DNA of 61,816 bases, counting the filler, from Nemertoderma westbladi (taxonomy: Eukaryota; Animalia; Xenacoelomorpha): NCBI GenBank assembly GCA_032718475.1. It is 2 parts of 2 records of this genome, joined end to end, with 100 filler letters (N's around TTAATTAATTAA, not from the genome) between each part and the next. Parts side by side here need not be neighbours in the genome. Positions count along the whole stretch, not along the records: positions 1 to 31,625 come from JAUCBJ010003705.1; 1 more part is not named here. One strand, written 5' to 3'. This document shows, piece after piece, positions 563-37,266 of this stretch (the first letter of the stretch is position 1; every line of letters starts with the position of its first letter). Made by a program: the position numbers and the translations under genes. Below the pieces are notes generated by a model. It searched no databases. It had not been told where the DNA came from and saw nothing but the letters and a program-made list of their open reading frames with translations.

Positions 563-706
563 TCACTGAGGCACAGACTATGCCTCATTGAGGCACAGAC
601 TATGCCTCACTGAGGCACTGAGGCACAGAATGTGCCTCACTGAGGCACTGAGGCACAGACTATGCCTCACTGAGGCACTGAGGAACAGACTATGCCTCAC
701 TGAGGC
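563..706. repeat. Tandem array of short palindromic units (TGAGGCA-cagacta-TGCCTCA), about 5 hairpins
   Basis: Unit read directly; the 7-bp arms are perfect reverse complements. Confidence 0.8.
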
Positions 707-804
707 AAGTTGCGGGGGTGTGCCAATATGAACCCCCGCCCCCGATGTTTTTTTTGTTATAACACTAAAAAAACACAGTTTGGAATCTGAAATTTTATGA
801 CTTT

Positions 805-1283
805 TGTGACGGGATCTGAGGATCCCGACCGGTTGATTTTAGTTACGCGTCACCGCACGGTTGAGAAAAGAGTTTGTTGTTGTCGTTTCAGTATTGTTAA
901 TAGGGTTGAAATATAGTATACAATATAGAATATGATAGCATGAGATAACTTGGATGTTGTACCGTTAAATTATATATTGATTGGTGACAGCGGTGACGGT
1001 ACTAAAGTGTCACCATACTGTCCTACGTGACTGAGATAACTGACCGGTAAAGTGTGCTATGCTGATAATATATATTGATTATTTCTACACTAGCTTGGCC
1101 TCTGTACCTAGCGGATGCTCTCCTCTCCCATTGGTTGATATACCAATTCTCGGCTCACACCTCTGTGGGAGTGCTTCCCCCCCGCTGCTGTCACTTTCCC
1201 TCTCCAGGAGGCTTAACCTCTGACCTCCCTTTGTGTGGCCCTTTGGGGGTTTGTTGTCCCCGTTATTGGTTGTGTGATACGAG
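805..1283 (-). repeat. 3' LTR of element A (about the first 95 bp of U3 and the PPT are deleted)
   Basis: 805-960 and ~1232-1283 match 20564-20768; the match stops at GATACGAG and runs straight into the 3'-UTR block shared with element B. Confidence 0.88.
1038..1135 (-). promoter_or_regulatory. Putative LTR core promoter: CCAAT box, TATATA, Inr-like TCAGTT
   Basis: Minus strand has CCAAT (~1130-1134), TATATA (~1069-1074) and TCAGTT ~30 nt downstream (1038-1043); same spacing in LTR B (TATA ~9763-9770, TCAGTT 9733-9738). Confidence 0.55.
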
Positions 1284-1994
1284 TGCGCTTCAATTCCGCT
1301 GGAACCCGATCTACTATCGGGTGTGGGGTGGACTTATCTTACTTGGAGTCGGCTTTCCAGTCCGCTCCCTCTGGGTATGATGTTACTACCCTCTCTTGGT
1401 GCAACTCCAACCTATGTTGCACCAAGACATCTGGCATCTCTGTTCGAGACAATTGTGGATTTCTCTCACACAATTTTATCTCCCCACTACTCTCTCCACT
1501 CTAACTCCACTCTGACTGACTCTAACTTCTCCACTCTCACCATGATTCTCCTCTACTTCTCTTCTACCTTCACTCTAATTTTCGGACCCTCTGTCCCTCA
1601 CTCTGCCTCTTACTACTCCCCCCCCCCCCCCACACTTGAATTGCACTCGCATCCTCTCCACGCGTTCTATACTCGATTCATATTCGCTCCTGATGAGCCT
1701 CACCCTCCCCTTCCATGCCGTCGCACTTAAGAAGCATCAAGTGTGTAGTGCTACGTCTAGTCTCCCATCCTCCTGTCATGGTCAATTGGCCCCCAGTCCC
1801 AGTAGCTAATTCGAAAAAAGGTTGCATGACTATAGTACTTACTTTGGTTATATTGGTTATATGATTATATTCTATTCTAATGATTATTACATATGTACAT
1901 ACTAATTGCACTTTTAATTAAATTTGCACTTAGGAGTTCGTATTACTTCACATGTGGTGCCTTCCAGGCATCCCCACATCTCCCCCTCTAAGTT

Positions 1995-4900
1995 CTAGTT
2001 TGCTCCTCCTGACTTTGGTAACCATCTCAGTTCCTTCCCTCTGTCGTCCTCCTCCCTCGGTCGCTTCCTGGTCGTCGCCGCTCCCTTGTTCTTATCCCCT
2101 TTAAGGTTCCTGATCCTTGCCGTCACTTCTCTGCTGATTCCCATCGTTGACTCATTGGGTGCTGGTGTTATTAGCTCCCGGTATCGTTTCGCGGGTGGCC
2201 CCTCCGAATGGCCCTGTTGCTTCCCCCTAGTGGCGTCCCATAGGATCACCTTCATAGCCCGCGGCACATGCTCCGCCAAGAAATCTCTGAACTCTCCCCG
2301 GTTCTGTGGCGTCCACCTGTCTAAATACCTCTGCGTATTTATCACTCTGGCATACGACGCCGCCGTTGACACTTCCTGATAAGTAAACGGAAGTCTCCGT
2401 TTAATGATTTCCAGGTGGGCCTCCTGGTTGATATTAAAGAAGCTCCACCGGAATTCCTGGGCCTTCATCCGCTGCCGGGTCATGGCGCCGACATCGGCCC
2501 ACTCCTCGAAGATCCTAAACTTCTCCTCATCGTCCATCCAGTCGCACTGGCGTCCGTAGTGCCCCCGGAAGTTGCACTTAGAACACCGGTTGTGCAATCG
2601 TGGACACGTCCCCATCCTATGACTCATTCTCGCGGCAGTAGAGGCAACTCGTCCCCTTCTGGAATCGATACAAGCAGCTCCTTTCCTGGTGAGTTTGCCT
2701 CCCGCAGTAATCGCAGCTGAGTACCAATGCCTCCCGCCCCACGTCGTCTTTCGTCCCAAGCGATCTCCTCGGTCTATGGAGTCGCTGGTAAGCGAACTTC
2801 TGGACGTTAGCGTCCCTGTCCACGTCTATCTCCTCACCTCGCCTGGGCATCGTCTCTCCGAAAACTACCCGTGGTGCTGTTCCCGGTTGCTCGCCCAACC
2901 TGATGGTGCTCCCCGCGAAATCCATCGCCGGCTCCTCATGCACCCAGGCCCGCTTGCCGGGTCTATCCCAGAAGGCCCTCGCCCCGCTGGCCGTCACCAC
3001 TCTCCCGCCAACCCAGTCCGTGTCCGAGTGGCCGATTCTCCTGATGGGCAGCATCTCTCCGAACTCGTCGTCATCCTCGTCCTCCTCTGGGAGTGGCTCC
3101 AAACCCGGGATCCTGGTGGATCCACTGTGTCCCTTCCCACCTTGGCTTTCGCCCATGACTCTCCATCCTTCCAGTTCCCCTGTCCTTCTCTCCGCGAAAT
3201 CGCCCTCGGCGCCCGCTGGTATGGGCGTTGTCTGCAATCCCGATGTCGACTGTTTCGGTGATCCCACCGTCCACCCCAATTCTCGCCCTAGAGACTCGCC
3301 CGAACTCCCTGATGTCCAGTGTAGATCGTCTAAGGCCGCCTGTTCCTCGAACCCGTAGCCCTCTCCTCTAGCTTCCGCCTCCCTTTCTTCTGCCTCCCTC
3401 CTTTCTCATCTAGCGATTTCTTCCAATCGCTTCGCCTCTCGTCTATCCGCCTCTAGCTGCTCCCACCTCTGATATGGCGTATCCACCTCCCTGTCTACTA
3501 GATATCGGCAGTTATAATATACCGACTTGCCCTTCAGCCCCGGGTGGTCTACCAGACCCTCGAAAGCCACTTTGAAGGCTCTTCTGTAGTTCAGGGGTGA
3601 TCCCGATAGCAGGAATGCCATTGGTTCTCTCTCGATAACCACGGTCATGAATAGGTTTAGCAAACCTATCATTATCCAGTCCTCCTGCAGGATATATCGC
3701 TTCTGATATATCTTTATCGCTCCTCTCCGGAATTGATACACCTCTTGCTTCCCCGGTCTCGCTCCCCACTTCAGCGAGTTCGTCAACTCCGCTCCGTACT
3801 CCTCCCTGAATTTACCCCAGTCCATTGGCTTGTGGCATACGAGCCCCATTAGCTGGCGGCCATCGCCACCGCTCCACAATGGCCCGCGTTCTCTACTAGT
3901 CCCAAACCGTCTGGCGCTGTCATAGCCATGTAGACCGTTTGCATGTCCAGGAGGTTGGGGGTCTCCGGACCGATGATCCTCTCAGCATCGTCGTGGATCG
4001 CCGATCCCACCTTTATTATTGACTTCTCTCTAACTAGGCTCCGCACCGCCTTTGGCAACCGGTTTAGCTTCGGCCCATTCTTCTTCCCATACGTTCCTAG
4101 ATCGAACAGGAATATATCCCCATTTGGCGCGGCCAAATGCAGGAGTATGGTTCTGGCCGACCTCGCCGACCCTCTTCTCAAACCTTCCTCATCCTCCACG
4201 GTCCCCTCATCGTCTAGGACCATGTATCCTCCCCTGCTGACGGACTCTACGAACCTCTTCCAGTCCTTTCTCGGTGGTTCCTTTGGATACTTCGGTATCC
4301 CGAACTTTCGCCTCGTCTCCCTTTACCACGTAGTGGAAATGCTCGAAGATCGCGTTGTCTAGCGACGGTATCCCGTAGGTCCCGACCAGCCGCTGTTCGT
4401 GCACCTCCCTGAAATGGTCCTGCAGCGCATCGTCGCGGATAGCCGATCCCACCTTTATCGTTGACTTCTCTCTTACTAGGCTCTGCACCGCCTTTGGCAA
4501 CCGGTTTAACTTCGGCCCATTCTTCTTCCCATACGTTCCCAGATCAAACAGGAATATATCCCCATTTGGCGTGGCCAAATGCAGGAGTATGGTTCTGGCC
4601 GACCCCGCCGACCCTCTTCTCGAGCCTTCCTCGTCCTCCACGGTCCCCTCATCGTCTAGGACCATGTATCCTCCCCTGCTGACGGACTCTACGAACCTCT
4701 TCCAGTCCTTTCTCGGTGGTTCCTTTGGATACTTCGGTATCCCGAACTTCGCCTCGTCTCCCTTTACCACATGTGGAAATGCTCGAAGATCGCGTTGTCT
4801 AGCGACGGTGTCCTGTAGGTCCCGACCTGCCGCTGTTTGTGCACCTCCCTGAAATGGTCCTGCAGTGCTCGTGCCTTGTGACCCTTCTCTAACCGCTCAT

Positions 4901-5003
4901 AGTATCCCCTCGTATTCTCTTCCGGATGCCTTTCGGTGAAATCCACCAGTATCTCCTTTCCTCCCAACTCCGCCTTTCTCTTTCTAACAAGTTTCTCCGC
5001 CAT
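1995..5003 (-). pseudogene. Accessory ORF3 of element A: DEDDy-like (WRN/RNase D-type) 3'-5' exonuclease + coiled/acidic linker + triple CCHC zinc knuckle; frameshifted, internally duplicated
   Basis: Joined ORF pieces give ExoI LDDEG, LLHLA..GDIFLFDL, KVGSAIHDDA (ExoII), LLDMQ, QKRYILQED (ExoIII-like), then CDYC..H..C, CLYC..H...CP, CSKCNFRGH..C. Confidence 0.8.
3985..4866. repeat. About 440-bp diverged tandem duplication inside the exonuclease domain
   Basis: ~3985-4426 aligns with ~4427-4866 with scattered substitutions; ORFs 3849..4223 and 4207..4770 encode near-identical peptides. Confidence 0.9.
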
Positions 5004-5489
5004 TTTGAACCCTCCCGATCGCTCAACTATAAGGTGGGGCCTTGCCAAGGCACAATATAAGTGAGTGATGTAGTTAGGATGGTCTGTACGGTCCGATAAT
5101 GGCCTATCTCTGTCTGAAATGCTAGGTTATTGCTTAATTTCCTTACTTTTATTTCCTAAAAGTGCCAAATTTACTAAATTCCCTAATTTTGTCAGTTACT
5201 TTAATTATATTCTAGAATATCTTGCCTACTGTTACCATAATTTGTCTAATTTTTTATTTTTAATATTTATTTAATCCTACAACTGTGCTATCAGTATCTA
5301 CTAATGGATTATTTCTTCTTTTAATCCATATTCTGGCCTACTCTATGGGCTTGTGCAGTACAGTAGTATGTCTCGTGTGGCCTACACGATTTGTCCTGCT
5401 GTACCCACGTGCCCCCCTCTCACTACTCACTACTAACTCTGCTAACTTTCTAACTAATTTCTACTAACTCTTACTAACTCCTACTACTA

Positions 5490-6275
5490 ACGGTACTACA
5501 CGTACCCTCTTACTACCAACTCTTGCTACTAACGGTACTACACATACCCTCTTACTGACTCTTCTACTAATGGTACTACACATACCCTCTTACTAAATCT
5601 TCTACTAACGGTACTACGTACCCTCTTACTAACTAACTCCACTAACTCTTACTAATGGTACTACGTACCCTCTTACTAACTAACTCCACTAACTCTTACT
5701 AACGGTACTATGTACCTTCTTACTAACTAACTCCACTATCTCTTACTAACGGTACTACATACCCTCTTACTAACTAACTCCACTAACTCTTACTAACGGT
5801 GCTACATACCCTCTTACTACTAACTCCACTAACTCTTACTAACGGTACTACATACACTCTTACTAACTAACTCCACTGACTCTTACTAATGGTACTACGT
5901 ACCCTCTTACTAACTAACTCCACTAACTCTTACTAACGGTACTATGTACCTTCTTACTAACTAACTCCACTATCTCTTACTAACGGTACTACATACCCTC
6001 TTACTAACTAACTCCACTAACTCTTACTAACGGTGCTACATACCCTCTTACTACTAACTCCACTAACTCTTACTAACGGTACTACATACACTCTTACTAA
6101 CTAACTCCACTAACTCTTACTAACGGTACTATGTACCCTCTTACTAATAACTCCACTAACTCTTACTAACGGTACTACGTACCCTCTTACTACTAACTAA
6201 CTCTCTAACTAACGGTACTACGTACCCTCTTACTACTAACTAACTATCTAACTAACGGTACTATGTACCCTCTTA
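5490..6275. repeat. About 47-bp minisatellite (~18 units), each with a GGTAC-tac-GTACC hairpin
   Basis: Cores at 5610, 5657, 5704, 5751...; a 5-unit higher-order block is duplicated. Confidence 0.9.
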
Positions 6276-6461
6276 CTACTCTTACTAACTTCTATCTGCC
6301 TACTTACTTACTACTTACCTACTATGTACTATTACTTTCCTTTCTCTTACTCTCTTTCTATTATTTTATTTTTATTTATTTATTTTTTTTTATATTTGTG
6401 TGGGAAGGGCGTCTCGCCCTCAATCCCACCCCCCTCAGTCCAGCACTTGGACAACTAAACT

Positions 6462-8319
6462 CTACGGTGCCCCTTCTAGCAGGCAACATTTGCCTACAGC
6501 CCTCCTGTAGGTCTTCCTGTCTTTCGCTACTATCTTACCCCCTATCCGCACTTCCACCGATCGGACTCTTCCATCCTCGTCGGAGTAAGTGTCCACTATT
6601 CTTGCTAATCTCCATTGATTGTTGATAATGGTGTCGTCCGTGACGATCACCAAATCACCCTTCTTTAACTCTCTAGTGGTATTTCTCCACTTACTCCTCC
6701 TATGTAGCGTGGGTAGGTATTCCTCGACCCACCTCCTCCAGTACTCCGCGCTTATCGCCTTAGCGACTTTCCAACTCTGTCGGGAGTGTATATCGTCTGG
6801 GTCTACACCCCACATGTCGATGGTCGCTGGCCTCTCCAGTAGAAAGTGACTGGGTGTCAGCACATCTAATGATTCTGGGTCATCATTTTCTGGGTATAGC
6901 AGTCTGCTATTAATGATACCCTCGCACTTAGCTAGCACCGTCTTTAGTACATCTTCTGTTACCATGTGGGTGTTCATCAACTTCGTCATCAGATGCTTGG
7001 AACTACCCACGAGTCTCTCGACGCACCCTAAAGTATGCGGAGCATACGGTGTCCTCCTTTCCCACTTCACCTGTCGTCTTCTTATGGCTACCCTGACTTC
7101 CTCCCCTTCCACGATGTCCAAGGCCTCTGCCAGCTCGCTCTCCACCCCCACAAAGTTGGTTCCATTATCGGAGTATATTACCGCGATTGTCCCACCTTTG
7201 CGATCTCTGAACCTCTCTAGGGCATTGATGAATGCCGATGCGGTTGCGTCTTGGGTGAGTTCTATTCCTACCGCCCGTGTGTTATTACATACGAAGATAA
7301 TGCCGTAGCGCTTCTCCGTGTGCCGCATCACCCTGATCTTTATCGGCCCGAACATATCTACACCGCAGTGCGTAAATGGCGGGTCGTGCTGTCTCACCCT
7401 GCTGGCCGGTAATGGTGCCATCTCTTGTACGGCCCGCTCCTTCCTCATCCGTCGGCAGGTCTGGCACTGCCCCACTATCGCCTTCACCTTCTTCCTTAGC
7501 TGTGTGATCCAGAAGGTCCTCCGTATCTCTGTGAGGGTCCGGTTGGTGCCCCCGTGCAATATCGACTTGTGGGAGTCCCAAATGATCTGGTGGACCATCG
7601 GCGACCTATTCGGAATGATGATGGGTTTCGGTGGGATAATGAGGCTGTTGTTATTTAGCACTCTGGAGTTCATTACTAAGATCCCATCGTCATTGAGTTG
7701 TGGCAACAGTGTGATGACCTTGCTGTCCCGTCGAAGATGTTGTTGTTTACCAACGCGCTCCATTTCGTCGCCGTAGTTCTTTCACTGTTCGTAGTGAATC
7801 ACGGCCTTGGCCGCTCCCATTGATGTTTGGTTTCTTCTTGGTGTCTTTGCCGACTCCCTTGAGGAAATCCCCGAAGGCTCTCCAGTACGCCACTAACTTA
7901 TTGGTCTTGTACCAACTTGAGCTGTAGCTGAGGAGTTTGTCCGTTGGGTTATCGCATGGTTCTTCTGGTTTTGGTTGCACGTCCCTGATCTCCCTCACCA
8001 TCTGACTATATATCTCTTCACCTTCTGCGTCTCCTCCCTCTTCCTCTAGTGTTACTTCCTCTGAGCCCGGGTCCACCTTCTTCATCAGTGGCCAGGCTGT
8101 CTTATCGTTCAGGAATTGTGGCCCGTGCTGCCACAATACTTCCTTCTTCAAGAAAGTGTGGCGTGCCATGCCCCTCGATAACAAGTCCGCTGGGTTCTCG
8201 TCCGTTGGGCAGTAGTGCCACCTTTCCAATTCCGTCGTCGCCCTTATTTCGTCCACCCTGTTTGCGACGAATATAGGGTATCTCGTCTTCTCATTATGTA
8301 GCCAACCAAGCACTACCAG
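6462..8319 (-). pseudogene. Element A pol: RNase H C-terminus and integrase (frameshift near 7750-7800)
   Basis: VLGWL, FVANRV, NPADLLSRG; HHCC zinc finger; GVDMFGP, SDNGTNFVG, ERLVG DDE core; W..EYLPTL and D.DGRVRSV C-terminal domain typical of Bel/Pao. Confidence 0.93.
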
Positions 8320-8900
8320 TATGTTCAGTAGTATGTTTCCACTATGTTGGGAATAGCATCCATCAGGTAAGCTGTTTGTTCTTTTTGTATTTACATTATT
8401 TATTTATTTATTTGATTTATTTTACATTACGTACGTACTTACTATATATACATTTTCTTTTTTTTTTATACCGCCCTGACTGGCTTCTTTTTGGACAAAT
8501 TAAGTGTTAATCAATTAGTTATTGGGTATGACTGTTGATAACAATTATAATTAATTACATCGCATTTTCTACCGTGTCCGTTTGAATCTGTATTTGTGTC
8601 TTGTCATTGATCCCGCTTGCATATCATTAGTTTATCATTATTGTTAATCGATTAATTATTATTACTTATGAATCATACACTTATTGTTCTCGTTCCCTAG
8701 TGGTCTGCTGCATGCTATAGTTTGTCACATTGTTCTTGTTATTGTTTTTATGACTGCTTACAAATGTACTGTATTTGTTTGTATCAATGTTGTGTCTTCC
8801 TTACATATATTGTTATGTTACCTGTTTGTATTTTTCTGTTACTTTCTTTCATCAGTCGCTTGTGGAACTTAATTATGTCAATAAACTAATCTAATCTAAT
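8320..8900 (+). mobile_element. Probable 3' end of a non-LTR retroelement inserted in the RNase H of element A
   Basis: AT-rich block interrupting RNase H between ELTAVRLGVRA and LVVLGWL; ends AATAAA-(CTAAT)n; no TSD seen and some host codons appear missing. Confidence 0.55.
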
Positions 8901-9486
8901 CTGGCCCTTACTCCTAATCTAACAGCTGTCAACTCGAGTTTCGGGACCGATGCTGAATCTGGCGGCGTCGACTTTGATTTGCTGAATGCAAGTCTGGGCT
9001 TATGAGCCCCCTCCCGTTGTACTAGGTAGAGTGCCGCTCCGTATGCTTCCAACGACGCATCAGAGAACATGTGTAGATCCAGATTGGTCATGTCCCCATT
9101 CGGGAAATACATGCGTGTCATGCTGTATGTCCAAATCTGTTCTAAACTCTCTGTCCACTTGCTCCACTGCTTGCTGATCTCTTCCGGGACCTCTGTATCC
9201 CACTTGTCCTTTAGCTTATATACTTTCTTAAGTATTTGCTTCCCCATGACTAATAGTAGGGATGCTAGGCCTAGGGGATCGTATTTCCTTGTTATGTACG
9301 ATACATAGCCCCACTTTGTGTGGATGTCCGCGCCCTCTTGGCTCAGTTGGTACTTGAACTCGTCTGTCTCTCGGTCCACACGATCCCTAATTCCTTCTGT
9401 TGGGACTCTACCCTTTTGTTCGCCATGTCCTGTCCCTTGGCTGTCGTGGGATTATCCATGGTCGACTCTGACCTCCTGTCCTCTAT
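8901..9486 (-). pseudogene. Element A pol: RT C-terminus/connection and RNase H N-half
   Basis: KELGIVW/DRETD (frameshift), YDPLGL, LHMFSDASLEAYGA, SVPKLEL; in frame with 17380-17875 once element B is removed. Confidence 0.9.
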
Positions 9487-10048
9487 TGTGACGGGATCCG
9501 AGAGGATCGCGGTTTATCCGGTGTGTTTCGTACGCGTCCCCGCCGTGTGAATGGAAAAGGTAATAATTGTTCTAGTGTCGTTGTCGAACTCTGATACACG
9601 TTGAGATAATAATGATGAGTGATACAGATAGCACAGTAGATAAAGCTAATATACCGGTAATATGGTGACGGTGGCAACGACGGTCTTAACAGTCACCGTA
9701 CTGCCTTACTGTACTGGGATAGCTGACTGAGTAAACTGACTATAATGATTACCGTACAGGTAATATATATTGCACGGGTTTGGCCGTTACAGTACTTAGT
9801 CGATGCTGTCCCCCCATTGGCTAATACCCCTGTTGGCACCCTTTGCCCCCCTCTGAAGTGCTTCCCTTCGCCCTTGCTGTTCTCTCTTGGTTAGGGGTTT
9901 GGCCCCTGACCCCTATTGTGTGTTTCTCCTTCCCTTCCCACTTTATTGGGGCGACACGAGGTTGATATTGGTAATCAACCTCGTGCTCCCAATATTGCTT
10001 AATGGCTCGCTCTATGGGTCTGTGTTAGCGGAATTGGATAAGCTAACA
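9487..10048 (-). repeat. 3' LTR of element B
   Basis: Direct repeat of 16818-17379; I found only three substitutions. Confidence 0.95.
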
Positions 10049-10620
10049 CTCCCCCCCATGCTATCTTCCCGGTAAGAAGATAGCATCCAACTAAAGTGCG
10101 CTACAATTCCGCTGGAACTCGATCTATTATCGGGTGTGGGGTGGAGTTATTTTCTTGGAGTCGGCTTTCCAGGCCGCTCCCTATGGGTATGATGTCACTA
10201 CCCTCTGGCGTCTCGTGTCGGGCCGATCGTGCGCTTCTCTCACACAATTTTTGTTTCCCCAACACTCTCGCCACTCTAACTTCGCTCTCTAACTCAACTC
10301 GCTCTCTCCCCACTCTTACACTCTCCCCACACCTGAATCGCACTCTAACTTCTCGCCAACAGCTCTTCTCACTATCTCCTCTCTACTCTCTGCCACTTTT
10401 TAAGGCCCTGACCTCTAATGCTACCCCTGTGCTATCATACTATATACCTTATCTAACTTACTAACTCTAACTATCTAACTCTACTAACTCTACTCTCTGC
10501 TAACTCTTACTACTTCTAGCTCTAACTAAAGCCTCTAACTTTCCACTAACTCTAACTAGAACTCTCTAACTCCACTACTAAGTCTACTAACTCTTTTCTA
10601 ACTCTAACTAAAATCCTCCA

Positions 10621-11400
10621 TCTACGTGGCGCTTGTGGTGCCCACAACCATTCTACTACTACTTCTAACTAAAATACCCCTCTTACTAACTCTGCCTCTA
10701 TCTACGTGGCGCTAACGGTGCCCACAACCACAACCGGTACTACGTACCCTCTTACTAACTCTACCTCCATCTACGTGGCGCTAACGGTGCCCACAACCAC
10801 AACTGGTACTACGTACCCTCTTACTAACTCTACCTCCATCTACGTGGCGCTAACGGTGCCCACAACCACAACTGGTACTACGTACCCTCTTACTAACTCT
10901 ACCTCCATCTACGTGGCGCTAACGGTGCCCACAACCACAACTGGTACTACGTACCCTCTTACTAACTCTACCTCCATCTACGTGGCGCTAACGGTGCCCA
11001 CAACCACTCTACTTACTACCACCGTCTACGTGGCGCTTGCGGTGCCCACAACCACTCTACTACTAAGACTTCTACTTTGCTACTACCTCTAACTCTACTT
11101 AGTCTACTCCTTTCTACTCTCTACTACCTGGCACCCTGTGTGCCCTCTCTACTACTCTACTCTCTGGCACCCTATGTGCCCTCTCTACTACCTCTAACAC
11201 TCTAACTCTACTACCTGGCACCCTATGTGCCCTCTCTACTACTCTACTCTATCTACATCTCCACCTCAACTAATACCTCTATCTACGTGGCGCTTGCGGT
11301 GCCCACAACCACTCTCTGCTACTACTTTCTACGTGGCGCTTCCGGTGCCCACAAACCCTCTCTTGCTACTTTCTACGTGGCGCTTCCGGTGCCCACAACC
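10621..11400. repeat. 69-bp tandem repeat (4+ copies) plus dispersed hairpin monomers in the 3' UTR of B
   Basis: Unit TCTACGTGGCGCTAACGGTGCCCACAACCACAACTGGTACTACGTACCCTCTTACTAACTCTACCTCCA from 10701; shares GGTACTACGTACCCTCTTACTAACT with the array in A. Confidence 0.9.
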
Positions 11401-11627
11401 CCCCTACTACTCGTGGCATGACAATATGCCACACTCCCTTACCCCGCCGCCTTCTAACTTCTCTACTACTACCTAACTTCTAACTGCTACTTCTTACTAT
11501 CCTCTACTAATTATTATTTAATTATTTTAATTATTTGTTTTTAATTAAATAATTATTTTCTTGTGGGAAGGGCGTCTCGCCCTCATTCCCACCCCCCTCA
11601 GTCCAAAATATTGGACGACTAAACCTC

Positions 11628-14600
11628 TTAACTAGGGCGATTCTTCCAACAGGCAGTCTCCCACTGCTGCTCTTGTAGGTCCTGTAGGATTCGCCACACT
11701 CTCTTCGCCAATTCCATCTCACCAGGAATTGGTTCTCCCTCTTCTGCCACCCTGAAATCGGGTCTCTCCGCCGCCTTCTTAACTAGCTCGTCTCCTGGCA
11801 TCAAAATGCCACCTCCCTCCTTGTTGTCTCCCGCCGGCAGAATGAATAGAAAGTGAAAGAACAGGCAAAACAGGAGGTACAACAGCAGTCCTACCCCTCT
11901 CCATCCTGCCTTCCTTCTCGACTTCCCCCTTGTCGGTATGCCTCCAAACCGGACCTGCGCCTCTTCCGGACACTCCTCTGGACACTCCCCCGGAGTGTTG
12001 TCCTCCGGACACCTCGCCGTCCGCTCCGCTCCATCTCCATACCGATGCTTGTTGGGAAACCTACTCACCTCTGCCCACTTTCTTACTGTCACCTCCCTAT
12101 CTGGCTCTACTACCTCTTGTTTCTCCTCTACTTCCTCTGCGTCTTCGGTGCCTGGTATCATGCACCCAGATGTCTCCGTCACACTGCATAGGATGTTAGT
12201 TTTAACTGGGCCGCTAAGCGTCCATCCGAACGGCGTGAGGATCGCCGTCGGGTCCCGCTGCCTGTCTTCGCCGAAGACCGTCTTCATTCTCTCATGGGCC
12301 GTCGGGCAGTCCATTCCTACTATAATGGACACCTTCCTAACGTCCACCTTTGGTATTGAGAAATCGATACCGTCCAGGAATCTATATTGCTCGACCTCAA
12401 TGTTGGTTGGTCGCCTGGCGTAGATGTTTATCGATTCTATGACGTGGATGGGGTCGATCGTCGCCCCATAGTCATATCCCGGTGCAATTGCTGCTATCCT
12501 ACACCGCCCCGTCCTCGTCTCCAGGACCTCATCTTTACTCGAGACGGTAGTCACCGCCATTCTATTCGGCCTTGTCTTTAGCCCTATCTCTTCGGCCACC
12601 CAGTTCTCCACCAGCGTGAAGGCTGCTCCGCTGTCGACCAGCATTAATGTCGTTACTGATCGACCGCCCTCTCCTGATATCTTCACTGGTACTACCCCGA
12701 GTAGTACTTTTCTCTTCTTCTCCTCTTCTGTCGTGCTTGTGGCCATTGCCTGGCCTCCAGTCTCGGACTCTCTAACTGCTGTTTCTCTACACTCTCCGGA
12801 TCTGTGTCCTTCTACCACACATCGATGACATAGTCCGTTTGCGTCTGTGTAGGCTATACGATCTTGTTTGGGCAACGCTTGCCAGTGCTTACAACTCCTG
12901 GTCTTATGTGTTCCGTCCCGATGTAATTGACATTCGAATCCTGGGTTATAGCGTTCCCTGTATAGTCCCTCACGTATCGCGCCTAGGTTTATATGTACCA
13001 ATTTAGTGTTTTGGTTGTCTGTATTCGGCCTACTGGGTATGTTGGGATTATGTTTATTTATGGTGTTATTTTCTTTCTGTCCCTGCCACGGTGTGGCCCT
13101 ACTACCAGCTAACTGTGGACTAGCAGTCCCCTGTGTGGCCGCATGTGGTAGTGACTGTCCCACTCCCGAGAATGGGTCTGCAGGATCGTGTTCGGGTTCA
13201 TGGCTTGTCCCCAAACTATCCTCGCTATAGACTGGGTCTGTTATTAATTCGGCTTCATAGTTGAGGAAGCTCGACATTTCTTCCAAGCCCGGTTCCACAC
13301 CCTTCTTCTCCCGTGTGGAGAAGGCTATCTTCCTCCACTTCCTTCGTAACCAGATCGGCAGTGCCTGCGCTATCGTGGTGATGTTGTTAGACGCATTGAG
13401 TTCGTATGGTGCATCTAGCGTCTTTAACACGATTAACGCCTTCTCGACCTTGTTTGCAAAGGTCCTTATGCTAACGGGATTGTCCTGTAGGCCACCCGAT
13501 GTTATGCCTCTCAGGGTTTGCCGGATGATCTTGGCCGGGTGCCCGTATTCCCTATCTAGCGCCCGCCATGCTGTTGTGAAGCCGCCCTCGATGCCCTGGT
13601 ATTGCCTCACGATGTCGTATGCTGGGCCTCCTGTATATACTTGCAGATATTTTAGGCACTCCGCCTGCGTCAAGTTCTTACTTAATATTTGGTTACTATA
13701 CATGCGCCGAAACTGTAGATATTCTTCCGGCCTACTCCCATCGAATTTAAATGGTTCCACAGGTGGTAACTCGATCCTAGTTTTTAACGCATCGATTAAC
13801 GTGGCCATCCCCATCGCCTGCGCTTCCAATGGGTTCGATGGATGTTGTATAGTTTCTCTTACAGGGTACGGTCCGTTCGTCCTATCTGCTGTTGACTTCG
13901 CTTGTTGCGTCGGGTATATCATTGGGGGTAACGGCCCCCTCCATATTTCCGTGTCGCATGATCTGTTCTCGTCCAAGGGGTTCGATGTTCTTGCTCCTAT
14001 TGGGGTATATTGTTGATATTGTGATGGGGGAATGTCACCCTGTCCCCCCCCCCACCGGTATGTTTGGTACTGGGGTTGATGTTAATATTTTGGGGCCCAT
14101 ACATCTATCTGCAATAATTCCCCCCTCCCCTGGATATATGTTGTGTCCCTGGAAATTATAGTCATGCTGCTGTACCGGTACCGATATAGGCCTATTCACT
14201 TCTTGCCTACCTACCGGTATGTACTCCGCGACTTCCGGGTTTAATCCCGTCGTCCGCGCTACCCTATCGCCTACTCTATCTCTCCCAGCATGGCCTATAA
14301 TAGTATGTGCAGTAAGGCCTACAGTATGTCCTGCAGTCTGCATGTGCCCTTCCGAATCGAAGTTTATTCTTCTCGAATCTCGAATCTCCCCGCGACTACC
14401 GTACTCTCGATCGGCAGCTATATCCCGTCGGGAAGCTTCTCTTCGATCCCCATTCCTGTTCTCTTCTTCGTATCGGTACATCCTGTACCCCTCTCTTGGT
14501 GTGCGGTGCGTTTCTCCGGGGCGACGGCAATCTCCCGAAGTTCGACCCCACTGACTCCCTACCTCCATCTCTACTATCGACGGCTCGCTATCCGTTCTCG

Positions 14601-16766
14601 CTCTCCGGTTGCTCCTAGCAACGACTCTTCTATTATCTTCCTTTCTTCTCTCTTCGACCTCTCGGTTAAACTCTACTAATCTTCTCCTATCTTCGACCTC
14701 TCTATTAAACTCTACTAATCTTCTCTCTTCTGACTGGGCTCGACGTTCCGTCGCCCGCCCTCTCGCGACGTCAACCTGTCTCTCTCTGCTCGATCGCACG
14801 CCGCTGGGGATACTCGCAATCCCCCTATTACTCTCCGTCGCCGGGTGTTGCGGTTTACCTAATTCGGCCCGCGCATTATCCGCCGACGCCTGTGGGACAC
14901 TCCCTGCCCCCCCTCTCTCGCTACTAATCCCTCGCGGTGGGGTGCCCGTAGCCCCCCCCCCCCACCCGCTACTTCTAACTTCACTATCTCTTACTACACT
15001 TCTGCGTCCCTCTTGTCGGACACTCTCTACCCCCTTTCTCTCGCCACTAATCTTCTGTGGTGGGGTGCCCGTAGCCCCCCCCCACCCGCCACTTCTAACT
15101 TCACTACCTCTTACTACACTTCTACACCCCTCTTGTGGGGCGTTCTCTGCCCCCCCTCTCTCGCCGCTAATCTCATGTGGTGGGGCGCCCGTAGCCCCCC
15201 CCCACCCGCCACATCTAACTTCAATATCTCTTACTTCGTCTCTACACCCCTCTCTAGTCGACACACTGTCTCTACTACGGCTGGGTCTATTCACCCCCGC
15301 CTCTCTCCCTACTACTGCGAGGCCTACCAGGCCCACCCCGGGTTGGCTCAACCCCGCTACCTCCTGCCTACCAACTACGTGGCCTACCAGGCCGCCGTCG
15401 GGTTGGCGCAACCCCGCCACTTCCTGTCTACTAACTACGTGGCCTACCAGGCCGCCGTCTGCCGGGCTATACACGTCTGACACGCTCATATTAATAGCAC
15501 CATTCCCAATATTATTTGTTAAGTCGATTAAATTATTAGAATTTGAGACGTGATTATTATTTAAATTAGAATTATTATTATTTTCAAAATTTAAATTGCT
15601 ATTCGAATTATTTGAATTATTTTGATTATTCTGAATATTTGAATTAATATTATTATTTGAATTTAAACTTAAATTACTACTACCGGGTAAGATATTTCCT
15701 GTAATAAAGGGTTAGGGTTATCTACTACGGTACTATCAATACAAACATTTCCTAACGTACTACTACTACCCCCCCCGCCCGTACGGTTACTGTACGTACT
15801 GTAAGTGTACCGCACGCTCTGTTCTCTTGCCTCACGCTCTTCGCGTTCACTCTCTCGCTCCTTCCTTCCCCTCAGTCGCCACTCTAATTCTTCAATTTTT
15901 AATTTATATGCAGCCAGATTTATCTCCTGCACCCTTCTTTCTTTTGCGGAGGATGTAGCAGACTTATAGGTTGCGACGGACTCCCGCCGCCCCTCCGTCC
16001 TACTAACTTTCCCCCGCTTTCCGGGGTTCTCGCTGACCGACGAGACCGAATCCTCGGAGCTAACTTCGGATTCGCCCTCGTGCGGTCCCGCCCAACCCAC
16101 TAACTTAACTTCCCTGGCATCGACTAAGTATGGCCCTATGTACACTACACCAGGCCCCATACCCCTATGTTCCCATAGCCCAAACAGTTCGAAGGCAACC
16201 CCTCTCGCTCTCTCCTCGGCCAGTTATCCCTGCCCAGAACGCACTAGGTAATCAAAGTATCTGTTCGACTCACCTAGTCGTCTCCTCAACTTCACCTGGT
16301 CTATCTCAGCCCCTCCTCTAGCTTCCTTCAGTTGTTCCCGGGTCGCGGCGTAGGCTCGTCGAAGTCGATCAGAAACCCCGACATCCTCGTCGCCGACCTC
16401 CCCTCCATCTCTCCGGGTCCGACGTCGTACCGGCGGCCCCACCGTTGCCGTTCCGGTGGGCCGTCCGTCGCCCTCGGCCTGTGGCTGGCCGGCGACATCG
16501 GTACGTCGACCCTCGCTCCGCGTCGACTCGTCTTTCTCCTCTCCCGTCTCACTCTCTCCTCTACTCGACTCGCTCTCTCCTCGTAGACGACCCCCCACAT
16601 CTTGGTTCGCCGGGTTGCTCGTTATCGACGTGGCGTCAACCGGCGTCGACGTGGTCGACGTAGCATCGACCGGCGTCGTGGGTTCGTATCGTCTCGCCGT
16701 GGCCTCGCGGATCGTTAGATCGTCGTCCGGGGTCCGCGGCGGTGTCGTTCCTCTCTCTCGACTCAT
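11628..16766 (-). pseudogene. Element B gag-protease polyprotein broken into several ORFs
   Basis: KFDG/LQVYTGGPAY Bel-type gag core, Cys/His knuckles (C..H...H....C; CHRC...GH....C), protease LVDSGA, AILTPFGWTLSGP; premature TAA at 16224-16226 where A has GAA; internal 120-bp and 60-bp repeats at 14900-15470. Confidence 0.9.
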
Positions 16767-16817
16767 CTTCGTCTTTAGTAGTCGTCAGTCACAGCTCGGC
16801 AGGCCTAGTGTTAAGAC

Positions 16818-17379
16818 TGTGACGGGATCCGAGAGGATCCCGGTTTATCCGGTGTGTTTCGTACGCGTCCCCGCCGTGTGAATGGAAAAGGTAATAATTG
16901 TTCTAGTGTCGTTGTCGAACTCTGATACACGTTGAGATAATAATGATGAGTGATACAGATAGCACAGTAGATAAAGCTAATATACCGGTAATATGGTGAC
17001 GGTGGCGACGACGGTCTTAACAGTCACCGTACTGCCTTACTGTACTGGGATAGCTGACTGAGTAAACTGACTATAATGATTACCGTACAGGTAATATATA
17101 TTGCACGGGTTTGGCCGTTACAGTACTTAGTCGATGCTGTCCCCCCATTGGCTAATACCCCTGTTGGCACCCTTTGCCCCCCTCTGAAGTGCTTCCCTTC
17201 GCCCTTGCTGTTCTCTCTTGGTTAGGGGTTTGGCCCCTGACCCCTATTGTGTGTTTCTCCTTCCCTTCCCACTTTATTGGGGCGACACGAGGTTGATATT
17301 GGTAATCAACCTCGTGCTCCCAATATTGCTTAATGGCTCGCTCTATGGGTTTGTGTTAGCGGAATTGGATAAGCTAACA
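16818..17379 (-). repeat. 5' LTR of element B
   Basis: Direct repeat of 9487-10048; followed on the minus strand by a short leader and the gag ATG at 16766. Confidence 0.95.
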
Positions 17380-17875
17380 TCTATGGCTTTCATAAACTCT
17401 TCTGAGCTGGATTGGAACTTGGTCAGGTTAAACCCAGATCCCTTCAGGATGTCGCGAACCTCGCGCCCTGTATCCTGTAGTTCTTTAACCGTGTTTCCAG
17501 ACTCCATTCCGTCGTCCACATAGAAGCCGCGTCGAATCATATCGATGGCTTTGGCGCTATATTTCTCCTCTTTCCCCTCTACTGTATCCCTTACAGCCAC
17601 AGTCGCCGTAAATGAGGACGACTTGGCCCCCATATTCTGCACCACCATCTTGTACATCGGTATTGTCGACGGTTCCTCGTCGCCGTTGTACCATAGGAAG
17701 CGCGTGCTGTCACTATCCTCCTCCGTCACACGGACTTGGTTGAACATGCCTTCAATGTCGCAGGTGAAGGTGTGCCTTCTGTTTCTGAATCTGAGTAGGA
17801 CCTCGATCCCCGAGTTATAGATATTGGGACCCACCAGCAGATAATTGTTTAGGCATTTGCCATTGGCCGTTAGCT
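17380..17875 (-). pseudogene. Element A pol: RT catalytic core
   Basis: CLNNYLLVGP, LLRFR, DIEGMFNQV, RFLW, MGAKSS, FYVDD, GFNLTKF. Confidence 0.93.
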
Positions 17876-20487
17876 CTCTAGTCGACGCACTATCTCTACT
17901 GCGGCTGGGTCTATTCACCCCCGCCTCTCCCTCCCTCTATCACTGCGTTGCCTGGCAGGCTCCCATCGGGTTGACTCAAACCCGCTACTCCCTGCGTATT
18001 GACTACGTGGCCTACCAGGGTCCCGTCGGGGTCTCTCACCCCCGTTACTCCCTGCATACTAGCTATGTGGCCTACCAGGCCCCCGCTGGTCGGACCACCT
18101 GCATCTGCCGCGTTCATATTAATAGCACCATTATCAATACTATTTTCTAAATTATTTAAATTATTGGAATTATTCTCTGAATTCGGATTATTATTTAAAT
18201 TATTTTGTATATTTTGGTTAGAATTGGGGTTATTTTGTTCGTTTGAATTAAGATTATTATTTAGATTATTTTGCGTATTTAAATTTAAATTATTTGAATT
18301 ATTTCCTACATTTAAATTAGGATCGTTCGGATTTAAATCACTATTATCGGGCAAAATATTATTTCCTGCAATGAGAGTTTGATTAGGGTTATCCACTACG
18401 GTACTATTAATATTAACGTTTTCTAATGTATTGTTATTACCCCCCCCCCCCCCCCCCCCCGCCCGTAAGGTTACACCAGTCTTGGGTCTGTCGTCCGGTC
18501 CCTGTAAGTGGGGTATTAACAAATGTTTCCATAACTTCTGGCTCCTCGTAAACACTACCCGAGCCAGCCTCACTCTGGCGCTTCTGTTTGGCCTGATATT
18601 GCATAAGCCCCCTCAACCGGGCATGCATATTATCATCCCGCACATGCTTTCCTGTTCTCTCTCTCTCTCTCCCTATCCTCTCGCAAACTCTGCTCGGCCA
18701 ATTCTGCTTCTCTCGCAATCCTCTCAAGCCGTCTCGCCTCACGTTCTTTTCGCTCGCTCGCCCCTCTCGCCTCACGCTCTTTACGCTCATTCTCCTCTCT
18801 CGCCCCACGCTCTTTACGTTCACTCTCCTCTCTCGCCCCTCGCTCTTTACGTTCGCTCGCCTCTTTCGCCTCTCGCTCCTTACGTTCGCTCGCCTCTTTC
18901 ACCTCTCGCTCTTTACGCTCATTCACCTCTTTCGCCTCTCCCTCTTCTCGCTCCTTTCCTTCCCTTATTTCTATCTCCTCACACTCTCTAAAGTTTCTCG
19001 CGATCCTCTCAGCCCTCTCTTTATTCTCTCTCGCCAGTTCTCTCTTTCTTTCCAACAACACAGTTCCCTCTTCCAACTGCCTCTCTAACTCTTTCTGGTC
19101 TAGTGCCACCATGTCCAACTGGCATGCCAGATCTATTTCTAACACCCTTCTTGCTTTTGCGGATGATGTAGCGGACTTGTTGGTCGCGACGGACTCCCGT
19201 CGCCTCTCTGTCCTACTAACTTTCCCCCGCTTTCTGGGGTTCTCTCTAACCGACGAGACCGAATCCTCGGGTTAATCTCGGATTCGCCCTCGTGCGGGTC
19301 TGCCCAACCCACTAACTTAATTCCCGTAGCATCCACTAAATACGGCCCTATGTACACCACTTGGGGCTCCATTATCCCGGACCGCCACAGTTCCAATATA
19401 ATATTAATTTAATTGCGCCATGGTACTGGCATTATGGTAGATAAAAACGGTATTTAATTAAATCAAATAAATAAGTAAAAACGTTAAAGAGTTAAAAGAG
19501 TTCGGTAAATTACGTATCATTAGAGGCCCAGGAGGTTAGCGTTCGCGAGTTTTCCTTGCATGTTAGTAGGTGGTATAGTGGGGCCGGGTCTCCGCACAGC
19601 AGACATACACAGCTCTCCAGGTTGGGGGCATGAAATTTATCTGTCGCACAGATCTTATGATGAAATCCGTGGACCGATACCCGTGTTGTTACGTGCCGAC
19701 CGGATTGGTTAGGTTCTGTCCATTTTCGGTTCTGGAATGCCGGGCTGCTCCAGAACTCGACCGGAATTTCCGACTTCTTGGTTACGATATCTGCTCTATA
19801 TTCCATCAAGGCAGCCGTATCGTTTAGGTGCAGATTACAAATGATGTCCTCGACTAGAGTGTTCTCCCCGCACAAAGCTATCACAAGGCGATTCAATGTG
19901 CTTTTGTGTACGCCCAAGGTTTTCTTTAGGTAATTAGTCTTTACTCTGTTACACAGTTCCAATAGTTCGGTGGCGACCCCCCTCGCTCTCTCACTGGCTA
20001 GTTCTCCCTGCCCGAAGCGAACTATGTAGCTTAAGTGTTTATTCGCCTTACCTAGTCGCCGGCTCAACTTCCCTGGGTCTATCTTTACTCCTCCTCTAGC
20101 CTCCTTGAGTTGTTTCTTTGTTGCGTTGTAGGCTCGTCGGAGCCGGTCACTAGTTCCGACGTCCTCGTCGCCGACCTCTCCTCCTCCCCTCCTGGTTCGG
20201 CGTCGTACCGGCGGCCCCACCGTCGCCGTTCCGGTGGGCCGTCCGTTGCCCTCGGCCTGTGGCTGGCCGGCGACATCGGTACGTCGTCCGCCGTCATGCG
20301 TCGACTCATCCTCTCATCCTGGTAGACGGCCGCCCCCTGTTTGGGCTAACGGATCGTCTCTTTCCGGCGAGTCTGGCGTTGCGGGTCGATACCGTCGCGC
20401 CGCGGCCTCGCGGATCGTTTCGTTCGTATCGTCCGGGGTCCGCGGCGGTGTCGTCTCTCCCTCTAGGTTTCGGGGTTCTCCGTTCAT
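17876..20487 (-). pseudogene. Element A gag N-terminal region (coiled-coil E/R/K repeats, Asn-rich tract); gag core and protease deleted
   Basis: Collinear homology with B 15250-16766 (TTPPRTPDD, VVYIGPYLVDA, SRSRDS.STRE), then a direct jump into RT. Confidence 0.85.
19399..19951 (-). mobile_element. 5'-truncated LINE fragment (ORF2 C-terminus with CxxC..HxxxC and 3' UTR)
   Basis: 13-bp TSD CACAGTTCCAATA at 19386-19398 and 19952-19964; absent from the homologous position in B; encodes LKKTLGVHKST...CLLCGDPAPLYHLLTC. Confidence 0.85.
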
Positions 20488-20563
20488 CTTGTAACTCTCT
20501 AATGGTGGCTGGCAGTCACAGTTCTGGCAGTTGTCTAGGCTTTGTACTAGGTGACTTTAGTAC

Positions 20564-20862
20564 TGTGACGGGATCAGAGGATCCCGACCGGTTGATTTTA
20601 GTTACGCGTCACCGCACGGTTGAGAAAAGAGTTTGTTGTTGTCGTTTCAGTATTGTTAATAGGGTTGAAATATAGTATACAATATAGAATATGATAGCAT
20701 GAGATAACTTGGATGTTGTGTGGCCCTTTGGGGGTTTGTTATCCCTGTTATTGGTTGTGTGATACGAGGTTAATTGGGGATTAACCTGGTATCCCCAATA
20801 TTGCAAAAAGGGCGCCGTTTCCCAACTTTATGGGGTGGTGGGCGGAATTGAATCCACTCACA
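20564..20862 (-). repeat. 5' LTR of element A with a ~270-bp internal deletion
   Basis: Joins the equivalents of 960 and ~1232 at a TTGT microhomology. Confidence 0.9.
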
Positions 20863-21689
20863 ACTTTTACTAAAATCTATTGTCTTCCTAATAGTGGAAA
20901 CGGTTTTCAAAAATATTAGGAAGTTTTTGAGTTACAGCACCAATATTTAACCCTACTTTTGGCACTTTTTTTTAAGACGTTTTTTGAATATTACATTTCA
21001 TGACATCTGATTTGTAACATCTCTATTTTTATTTACACCGGTTTTTTGTTGTTTGCAATTAGGCAGAATTCACATAAATTAATTTCGAAATTTCAGACTT
21101 GTTTTTTCTGTGGGTGCCAAATGGTGCCAGTACTAAATTTTGAAATATGTCAATTTTGTAAATTAATTTTATGAAGGGGTTTTTGGGGTTCTGGTTTCGA
21201 TAGAATATATAGGAGATGCACCAGCCACCTCAAACGTGTATTTTTCTGTGCTCTGTGCAAAATTTCGTGCCAGCACGAAATTTTGAAAATCCATTCAGTA
21301 GTTCAATTGATTGTGACAACTTATTTCTCGCATTTTATATGTTTATGGATATGGGTTCTGAATTCAATTGAATAAATAATTTTCTAACTGGACATCTGAA
21401 ACTTGTATTTGTCGGAAGGGGGTACAAAATTTGGTGCTAGCACCAATATTATATCAATTGATAGTATCACCTTGTTTTTTTGCGTTTTACGGGTTTGTGT
21501 GGGTTGGAATTTAAATGGAATAAGTAAAAATTGCATAAGAGTTTTCAAACTTGTATTTTTCGGCGGTGGTAAAAATCTTCGTGCCAATACCAAATTGTCG
21601 AAAATAAGCAAATTGATCAATAGATAGTATCATCTTGTTTCTTGCGTTATATGGGTTTATGAGGGCTATGTGTCAGATGGAATCACTAA

Positions 21690-22030: not shown

Positions 22031-23144
22031 AAACATTTAGCTGAAAATTGTAACTTTCAAATTATTTGACAATTTTTCATTCCTTGAAATTTTGGTGCTG
22101 CAAAATAATCACCCCAGTCAATTTTTTCACAAAATTTATTTTCCCAAATACCTTAACGAAAGCAAATGGTATACAATTCCCAACCTCATATTTAAGATAT
22201 TACAGTAGCTGTGAGTTGTTATCTAAAAACAATGACATAAATTCGTGCTGCTACGCAGCACGAACCACCATTGTTTTCGGCAGCAATTATTCGTCTCCCT
22301 ATGTTTAATAAATAAGAAAAGTGGTTCATTATTAAACATTAATTTTCAGTTGTATATATTGTGCATCGATGTATATAACTTATTATGTAAAAGTACATTT
22401 TTATTTCATACAATCATTAATAAGAAATTCGATCCATTATTAGTTCCTTAATTCTAAATCAAAATCAACCTGCAAATAATGAAGACTTTGTTTTGGAATT
22501 TCAAAACCATGCTATTCAGATGCGCGATATCGCGTTTAATTCAAATTATGTCTACTACCCTAGATCCAATGACAATGTAGATAAGCCGCTCTCTAGTTAC
22601 GTAATAAACTATTCGAGAACACTAAATTATTTAACATTGAATTGAAAATTACATTAAATTGACATTAAAAAAAGTAGAACATTTTTTAAAAATATTCTCT
22701 CGACCCTATATTAATCTCGCTAGCAGCGCTCGGTAATTACAATGCCTCAAAAATATAGAAAAAGTGTTACGTTCTTCCCAAGTAATTATTATTTCTTGTC
22801 TTTCCTGCCCTTACCGTATTATTGTTATTAATTTATATATTCGTGATTCCATTATTGTACCCTAACTACCTTAGGTAAATAAATATTGTTTGGATAAACA
22901 AATAAAATATAATTATCTTTCTATTTCAGAATGCCGGCATACTCCTCTCATTATTCATTTACATTAAGTTACTAACCCACCGATGGCATTACCTTTTTCA
23001 AACACCGTTGGAGACAACCCCCAACTCGCTCCAGTACAACATAAAGGATACTCTTCCCTGCCCCTACATCCCCCACCCCACCATCAGAAATAGTTAACTT
23101 ACGTATGGGTAACTTCATGGACAAACGGAAGGTTATATGTACAG

Positions 23145-37131: not shown

Positions 37132-37266
37132 GGCACTCCTTAAATATAGGGCACCCTACTTTTTTTTTCAAAATTTTTTCTATATGTACCGGTAACTATT
37201 TGTTAGGCCTACCTCTGTACTTATATAAATTATTACAATTATTATTATTAGCCTATCGGTTAAACG

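Follow-up and report, generated by a model that had tools for sequence, protein, structure and literature searches.

The window analysed here is the whole stretch of 61,816 nt from Nemertoderma westbladi (GCA_032718475.1), two records joined with 100 filler N, of which positions 1-31,625 come from JAUCBJ010003705.1. On its minus strand lies a defective BEL/Pao long terminal repeat (LTR) retrotransposon, element A, with a third open reading frame (ORF3) between the integrase and the 3' LTR that is predicted to encode a DEDDy-type exonuclease followed by three CCHC zinc knuckles. The features of element A and of its ORF3 are as follows.

805-20862, minus strand: element A, BEL/Pao retrotransposon, with the target-site duplication ACTTT at 800-804 and 20863-20867
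20564-20862, minus strand: 5' LTR of element A, from which an internal deletion has removed the segment complementary to the primer-binding site (PBS)
17346-17936, minus strand: reverse transcriptase (RT) of element A, by Pfam
8894-9451, minus strand: Peptidase_A17 of element A, by Pfam
7781-6462, minus strand: integrase ORF of element A, with DUF5641 (E=7e-25), Integrase_H2C2 and rve (Pfam domain span 6465-7781)
5027-5034, minus strand: candidate splice acceptor CCTTATAG, which ends 23 nt before the ORF3 ATG
5003-1995, minus strand: ORF3 of element A, with the ATG at 5003 and the stop at 1995-1997, in the same sense as the integrase
4767-5003, minus strand: N-terminal piece of ORF3, about 80 residues with the ATG in a CAAAATG context and no family match
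3985-4872, minus strand: 442-bp tandem duplication (units 3985-4433 and 4427-4872), 94.9% identical and spanning ExoI to ExoII
4206-4214, minus strand: ExoI-like D-x-E (D 4212-14, E 4206-08), repeated at 4648-4656 in the other duplication unit
3987-3995, minus strand: ExoII-like H-D-D, whose final D (3987-3989) falls on the RNase D ExoII D
3679-3696, minus strand: ExoIII-like Y-I-L-Q-E-D, with E at the canonical D position in two RNase D alignments
2850-3480, minus strand: Glu/Arg-rich helix and acidic, Gly-rich linker, from translation, holding the stop at 3406-3408
2544-2715, minus strand: three CCHC zinc knuckles (2674-2715, 2604-2646 and 2544-2585)
2469-2510, minus strand: FE..AD.G..T..R motif, FEEWADVGAMTRQR, 3' of the knuckles, with a look-alike in the ORF3 of element C (below)
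1998-2120, minus strand: basic C-terminal tail of ORF3, from translation
805-1282, minus strand: 3' LTR of element A, U3 start lost, with a TATA-like box at 1069-1074 and an initiator (Inr)-like TCAGTT at 1038-1043, called against the Inr consensus

Element A carries the pol domains of BEL/Pao in the BEL/Pao order (RT, Peptidase_A17/RNase H, integrase with DUF5641), together with the TG...CA LTRs and the target-site duplication that BEL/Pao requires. The two LTRs differ at 3 of 208 alignable bases, which marks the insertion as recent in spite of the defects of this copy. The best relatives of its integrase are 31-38% identical among the 120 proteins listed, all of them BEL-type by Pfam, and at most 40% identical among 80 metagenomic loci; with the closest identity at only 31-40%, the lineage of element A appears isolated. 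Searches of viral contigs with the integrase returned 0 and 1 loci.

ORF3 starts 1458 nt after the integrase stop and ends 713 nt before the 3' LTR, with a length of about 855 codons once one unit of the 442-bp duplication is removed. This agrees with the initial annotation, which had placed a sense-strand ORF of about 850 residues between integrase and 3' LTR, and all of the motifs it named (DxE, ExoII D, YxxQED, three CCHC knuckles and FE..AD.G..T..R) could be located. In element A the frame is broken by frameshifts near 4768, 4310, 3855 and 2627 and by one in-frame stop (3406-3408). The first and last knuckles (2674-2715 and 2544-2585) are perfect CX2CX4HX4C motifs, and the 2627 frameshift interrupts the middle one (2604-2646). 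The zf-CCHC profile scores are weak and below the cut-off. The exonuclease-like domain also carries LLDMQ and KWGARP motifs, and the basic tail is a possible nuclear signal. An envelope (env) role is ruled out by hydropathy, the top 19-residue value over five ORF3 pieces being 1.46, with no membrane-spanning helix. As for expression, a splice acceptor had been proposed ahead of the ATG, and CCTTATAG is indeed the sole match to the acceptor pattern within 400 nt upstream, with a G directly after the acceptor AG (place 5026, sense) in nearly all covering contigs; the site stands as a candidate, from which ORF3 may be translated from a spliced subgenomic mRNA.

Further copies of the region are seen as short contigs from four DNA runs of at most three samples, in which depth does not equal copy number. 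Positions 700-6500 are matched by 13,891, 7,304, 7,441 and 94 contigs per run, with 30/30 bins covered in 4/4 runs, and the majority of these contigs are less than 99% identical to the window copy. Diverged copies thus cover the whole of ORF3 in every run, which refutes the one-off insertion that the initial annotation had considered. None of the contigs that span the 3855 frameshift (9, 4, 4 and 1 per run) carries it, and by depth approximately 85-100% of those over the 2627 frameshift lack that one. In one run, loose contig ends at 4428 and 4770 are compatible with copies that have neither the duplication nor the first frameshift. The interval 3329-3454 is bridged gap-free by one contig. It is likely, on this contig coverage, that the exonuclease-knuckle fusion exists as one frame in family members. 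One contig in run X4 joins 4926 to 2847, in frame by coordinates and with the exonuclease dropped; this joint was seen in that contig only, and chance alone would put a third of such joints in frame.

Selection on ORF3, proposed as a check, was assessed as the ratio of replacement to silent substitution rates (dN/dS) between the two duplication units, giving 0.23 over a 108-codon core (P=0.008) and 0.34 for the pooled units (P=0.012). These ratios suggest that the duplication brought together two constrained family members, presumably joined by template switching. Among the 40 of 80 substitutions displayed, which were chosen by the tool, 22/40 are at third positions (P=0.004) and 23/40 are silent. 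Judged by its copies across the four runs, ORF3 is a family-wide accessory gene of this BEL/Pao lineage.

With respect to the fold of the N-terminal half, the ESM Atlas assigned PF01612 to 28/30 matches, the best at 0.95 with 188/256 features shared, and the ten best family hits all agree; a score of at least 0.95 is reached by about 1/100 shuffled proteins. The top Atlas cluster is commonest in Rotifera, and the same search with the knuckle piece gave leads that were all below 0.9, with low recognition. Profile comparison by hhalign to RNase D is weak for the C-terminal half (P=0.018), with KWGARP on DWLARP and QKRY...E on QCEY...D, and yields no meaningful alignment for the N-terminal half (P=0.079). 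An 8-sequence profile scores the domain at 1.2 bits, a value matched by 6/500 shuffles, with HDD falling on ExoII. AlphaFold models of the exonuclease reach mean confidence values (pLDDT) of 36 and 37, and a wide fold search with the first model gave a best Z of 3.6. The profile and structure check that had been proposed for this domain thus produced the weak C-terminal hhalign alignment, with Pfam and the PDB blank and both models poor. We nevertheless consider it very probable that the domain has the DEDDy (DnaQ-like) fold, given how the motifs are spaced, their retention in a second relic and the Atlas match to PF01612. A real gene joining this fold to knuckles, as initially annotated, is probable too: the Atlas match, the motif conservation and the family copies favour it, whereas neither HMM (hidden Markov model) nor structure searches gave a match.

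The second relic lies on the plus strand on either side of a DNA transposon, and two further BEL/Pao elements of the window bear on how ORF3 is assembled.

36760-37131, plus strand: second exonuclease relic, N-terminal half, with D-A-E
55036-55624, plus strand: second exonuclease relic, C-terminal half, with YGIQED at 55424-41
37132-55027: DNA transposon splitting the second relic, with terminal inverted repeats, the 8-bp target-site duplication GAACCGAT and an IS1595-type DDE transposase at 37264-38154 (E=5e-10)
9487-17379, minus strand: element B, a nested BEL/Pao derivative with gag-protease, without the RT/integrase core and without ORF3
38784-51869, minus strand (that of its ORF3): element C, BEL/Pao, with the target-site duplication GAGGA, without RT and integrase, ORF3 kept
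40104-41568, minus strand: ORF3 of element C, with three knuckle-like motifs and a WE.NAD look-alike, without the exonuclease

The relic is 28-33% identical to the ORF3 of element A and keeps D-x-E and Q-K-x-Y-x-x-Q-E-D, while its ExoII region is decayed and no knuckle match was found after its C-terminal half. The YxxQED reported for a second copy is therefore real, but that copy is a distant plus-strand relic split by a DNA transposon, which we take to be Merlin-like. This transposon holds a long interspersed nuclear element (LINE), which in turn holds element C. At 34385-34430, about 2.3 kb upstream of the relic, there is a short likeness to the conserved LTR end of A and B that may mark the lost parent element of the relic.

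Knuckles 2-3 of element C align with those of A (score 77, 0/1000 shuffles), an alignment partly driven by Cys spacing, whereas the post-knuckle segments of A and C alone are not significantly alike (300/1000 shuffles; BLASTP E=2.9). The idea that the knuckles were copied from gag finds the spacing and the last ligand different between the ORF3 knuckles and the gag knuckles of element C. The N-terminal part of the element C ORF3 (41158-41568) has no family match. The window therefore contains three natural states, namely exonuclease plus knuckles (A), knuckles alone (C) and no ORF3 (B).

A PBS not derived from tRNA had been proposed for element A and is borne out, and all three elements share it.

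20554-20563, minus strand: PBS of element A, directly after the LTR terminal CA, no TGG
999-1008, minus strand: PBS-complementary segment of A, 10 nt, within a predicted hairpin (986-1022, -16.5 kcal/mol) whose loop of 11 nt contains it
16809-16817, minus strand: PBS of element B, pairing with 17014-17022 (9 nt)
50628-50640, minus strand: PBS of element C, pairing with 51380-51392 (13 nt)

No TGG follows the 5' LTR in A, B or C, so that none of them has the tRNA-3'-end PBS typical of BEL/Pao, although an internal tRNA fragment could still serve as primer; instead, a complement to the element's own LTR starts at the first base after the terminal CA in each. Such complements are rare in shuffled sequence (A, 10 nt, 0/2000; B, 9 nt, 1/2000; C, 0/2000 in a 12-nt test), cross-family PBS/LTR matches among the three reach only 3-7 nt, and A and B differ at 4/9 positions on both the PBS and the complement arms. 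The complements of A and B lie 194-196 nt from the LTR end, within the loop of a predicted hairpin, and approximately 35 nt downstream of an Inr-like box common to both. Against the published measure of self-priming, at least 10 nt of complement beginning 0-5 nt after the 5' LTR (PMC6317226; here and below, PMC6317226, PMC4600332, PMC5408684 and PMC7797062 are cited from the portions of their texts available to us), A and C have the required length and B is one nucleotide short. Folding of the B leader gives the PBS duplex a pair probability of about 0.17. Allowing the complement to continue across a splice junction lengthens it by no more than one base in any of the three elements. The self-complementary primer site is most likely Tf1-like self-priming, which would work without ORF3.

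The initial annotation had also linked this PBS to ORF3, and here we find co-occurrence only; a causal link of ORF3 to the primer type is unsupported. None of the 80 metagenomic BEL loci matches ORF3 pieces (0/80), many of the loci ending within a few hundred bases of the integrase, and no PF01612 domain occurs in the 19 ORFs scanned downstream of integrase in these loci. LTR ends were callable in 8 of the 80 loci, with five PBS of the TGG type, two unclear and one (L045) self-complementary. L045 combines an 11-nt self-complementary PBS with a single intact 2045-codon gag-pol frame, and 166 nt, holding no ORF3, separate the integrase match from the 3' LTR, so that in this one case the self-complementary primer type exists without ORF3. 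Elements B and C, with the same PBS type and without the exonuclease, are a weaker pointer in the same direction, both being defective. The exonuclease is thus dispensable, being absent in B, C, L045 and the one contig whose joint removes it. In L045 (145-337 and 6694-7103) the 11-nt complement is found in the 3' LTR only, and the 5' LTR diverges inside the complement at a pyrimidine tract plus CAG, as would be seen were the complement a splice junction. Another metagenomic locus (L036:6549-7187) has a tyrosinase-domain ORF (E=6e-11) approximately 470 nt 3' of the BEL integrase, which may be cargo of the element or a host gene flanking it.

We tentatively propose that the ORF3 exonuclease acts on short RNAs, of which host silencing RNAs are the most plausible, by trimming or degrading them, a mechanism that, taken whole with its substrate, we rate somewhat below even. 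The knuckles would hold the RNA as a clamp, as in trypanosome RNase D, and a tethered 3'-5' exonuclease of the RNase D/WRN type would trim its 3' end, so that short RNAs would be trimmed or destroyed and ORF3 would not be needed for priming. A counter-defence role fits best because the gene is dispensable, fast-evolving and captured more than once in rotifers.

Several observations weigh against this proposal and against the exonuclease on which it depends. The anti-silencing substrate is argued from analogy and from the pattern of a fast-evolving, dispensable gene, and the 2'-O-methyl ends of mature PIWI-interacting RNAs (piRNAs) resist such enzymes. ExoIII is non-canonical, with Y-x3-E-D instead of Y-x3-D in both copies, E aligning to the catalytic D, and MAFFT multiple alignment does not place D-x-E on the RNase D ExoI. 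The exonuclease pieces, searched separately, have no Pfam or NCBIfam match at E<=10; there is no PDB sequence match for the exonuclease, and no relative of it was found among 1.84 billion representative proteins (HMMER) or by word-seeded searches. The N-terminal 32 codons of the duplication are unconstrained (dN/dS 1.18; 4 replacement changes against 1 silent), and the stop at 3406-3408 and the break near 4310 lie outside the substitutions displayed. Homologues of the exonuclease are likewise absent from the phages, plasmids, viral contigs and metagenome contigs searched.

Doubtful, though the best of the alternatives, is that the exonuclease fold is weakened or dead and acts with the knuckles as an RNA-binding scaffold or decoy, like Maelstrom and EXD1 in the piRNA pathway. 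The fourth acidic position is held by E in both copies, with D one residue later, element C has a knuckle-only ORF3, and inactive DEDD derivatives are known in piRNA biogenesis (PMC5408684). Yet element A has the ExoI D and E along with the ExoII D and the Tyr of ExoIII, the residues D, E, Y, E and D are retained across approximately 70% divergence, and rotifer ORF3s are also altered (DEED) and were still judged possibly active (PMC5408684). We infer that ORF3 may be catalytically active despite the E at the fourth acidic position.

Less likely is a role in primer maturation, in which LTR RNA would pair with the PBS through the hairpin loop and be held by the knuckles while the exonuclease trims the tail to a priming 3'-OH. 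The pairing lengths (A 10, B 9, C 13 nt), set against cross-family matches of 3-7 nt, and the 4/9 positions that differ between A and B on both arms would suit such a role, as would a complement that lies downstream of the Inr-like motif and so may not be the RNA 5' end, which would make processing necessary. However, L045 has the PBS type and an intact frame with no ORF3. The exonuclease is missing from B and C as well, despite their PBS type, although these two defective elements might be supplied in trans, and Tf1 needs the RNase H of its RT only, according to a reference title in PMC4600332. The wider scenario, that a BEL/Pao lineage swapped the host tRNA for its own LTR RNA primer and captured a nuclease trimming this primer to the 10-nt PBS duplex, is more improbable again; if true, no earlier retroelement would be known to encode, apart from its reverse transcriptase, a nuclease for processing its own primer.

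Equally improbable is an enzyme acting on DNA to polish or proofread cDNA 3' ends inside the particle. PF01612 takes in polymerase proofreading and WRN domains, DEDDy enzymes are able to act on single-stranded DNA (PMC5408684), and the ExoIII of Pol I, YAAED, resembles the E-D ending of ORF3, but the CCHC knuckles together with the W.ARP motif suggest an RNA enzyme resembling RNase D, and most BEL elements have no ORF3 (0/80 metagenomic loci, many of which end soon after the integrase). That the N-terminal half is not DEDDy at all, its motifs and language-model match being coincidental in an orphan protein with blank HMM searches and weak profile support, is very unlikely given the rarity of its Atlas score among shuffled proteins, the ten concordant family hits, and the fact that the residues kept between the two copies are those predicted by the motif model, in the right order and spacing.

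Beyond ORF3, elements A and B share several features. Element B sits inside the RT of element A, with LTRs that are 99.5% identical and the target-site duplication TCTAT. Tandem-repeat arrays lie just 3' of the integrase end, with 47-bp units in A (5415-6350), 69-bp units in B (10606-11411) and a core motif common to both. Gag-leader ORFs common to the 5' region of A and to B (15250-20313) are 72-86% identical and contain Asn-rich and Arg/Glu repeat tracts, and A possesses a further ORF upstream (19510-20313), the 3' half of which has no counterpart in B. The stretch preceding the 3' LTR (1282-1394 and 10095-10206) is 92% identical between A and B, and the LTRs are approximately 59% identical over their aligned part; in the 3' LTR of A the polypurine tract is gone together with the U3 start. 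Elsewhere in the window, 28642-30732 (plus strand) is a decayed gag-protease-RT fragment with a 379-bp tandem duplication spanning its knuckles, and long inverted repeats at 21675-22034/34863-35209 and 23138-24559 are probably further DNA transposons or miniature inverted-repeat transposable elements (MITEs).

Compared with known systems, element A resembles the Belpaoviridae (PMC8742986) in its protease-RT-RNase H-integrase order, Peptidase_A17, DUF1759, DUF5641, TG...CA LTRs and 5-bp target-site duplication. It differs in that Belpaoviridae have an 18-nt PBS for tRNA-Arg or tRNA-Gly, whereas the PBS of A pairs with the LTR, and in that they have at most an env-like third gene, whereas the ORF3 of A is not env-like. 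In its primer site, A is like Tf1/Tf2/Tj1, Tf1/sushi, Tcn1 and TAR, which have no tRNA site and a PBS that complements an LTR segment of at least 10 nt from the LTR end (PMC4600332, PMC6317226); these are Ty3/gypsy or copia elements and not BEL/Pao. The Tf1 complement is the RNA 5' end, whereas in A, going by motifs, it apparently falls in a hairpin loop some 35 nt from the transcript start. No published report of an exonuclease ORF3 or of self-priming in BEL/Pao was found in a search whose reach stopped short of Repbase, supplementary alignments and most subscription journals.

The closest precedents for ORF3 are the DEDDy ORF3s of the bdelloid rotifer LTR retrotransposons Juno and Vesta and of the Athena/Terminons (Rodriguez et al. 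2017, PMC5408684). Like element A, Juno and Vesta carry an exonuclease-like ORF 3' of pol in the env position, with no membrane helix, an altered acidic motif and putative activity. Of the precedents named in the initial annotation, the rotifer one is confirmed and the nematode one was not found, the word 'nematode' having no mention in the available text of that paper, which also makes no mention of a PBS. Unlike the rotifer ORF3s, that of element A sits in a BEL/Pao element and not in a rotifer clade; its about 855 codons with three CCHC knuckles and a long linker have no counterpart among the ORF3 features given in the same text. Regarding kinship with Juno, Vesta and Athena, no alignable relative was retrieved, and the Atlas cluster named above is the one pointer to Rotifera. 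ORF3 would appear to be a real, family-wide and undescribed variant of the exonuclease ORF3, for which an RNA-trimming mechanism is plausible. The range of exonuclease-type ORF3s thereby widens from elements of rotifers to BEL/Pao, with RNA-binding knuckles as an addition, and a class of retrotransposon accessory genes whose role has been an open question since 2017 gains a concrete, testable job. The three ORF3 states on elements with a self-complementary PBS allow priming and counter-defence to be compared within one genome.

The fusion to knuckles, singled out in the initial annotation as a notable part, is probable for ORF3 and has a cellular precedent that the annotation missed. This is the trypanosome RNase D, TbRND (Gao et al. 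2021, PMC7797062; PDB 7C42-7C4C), in which CCHC fingers boost RNA binding and cleavage and overexpression of which depletes small guide RNAs. As in ORF3, a 3'-5' exonuclease is followed by C-terminal CCHC fingers, a combination that its authors call very unusual (PMC7797062). TbRND is an enzyme of the cell's mitochondria that has four fingers and a linker of 28 residues, whereas in ORF3, which resides on a mobile element, the three knuckles lie about 320 codons after ExoIII. Since no homology was detected between them, the two layouts are likely convergent; ORF3 is predicted to bring to a BEL/Pao retrotransposon the exonuclease-plus-knuckle arrangement to which trypanosome RNase D owes its efficiency in trimming small RNAs.

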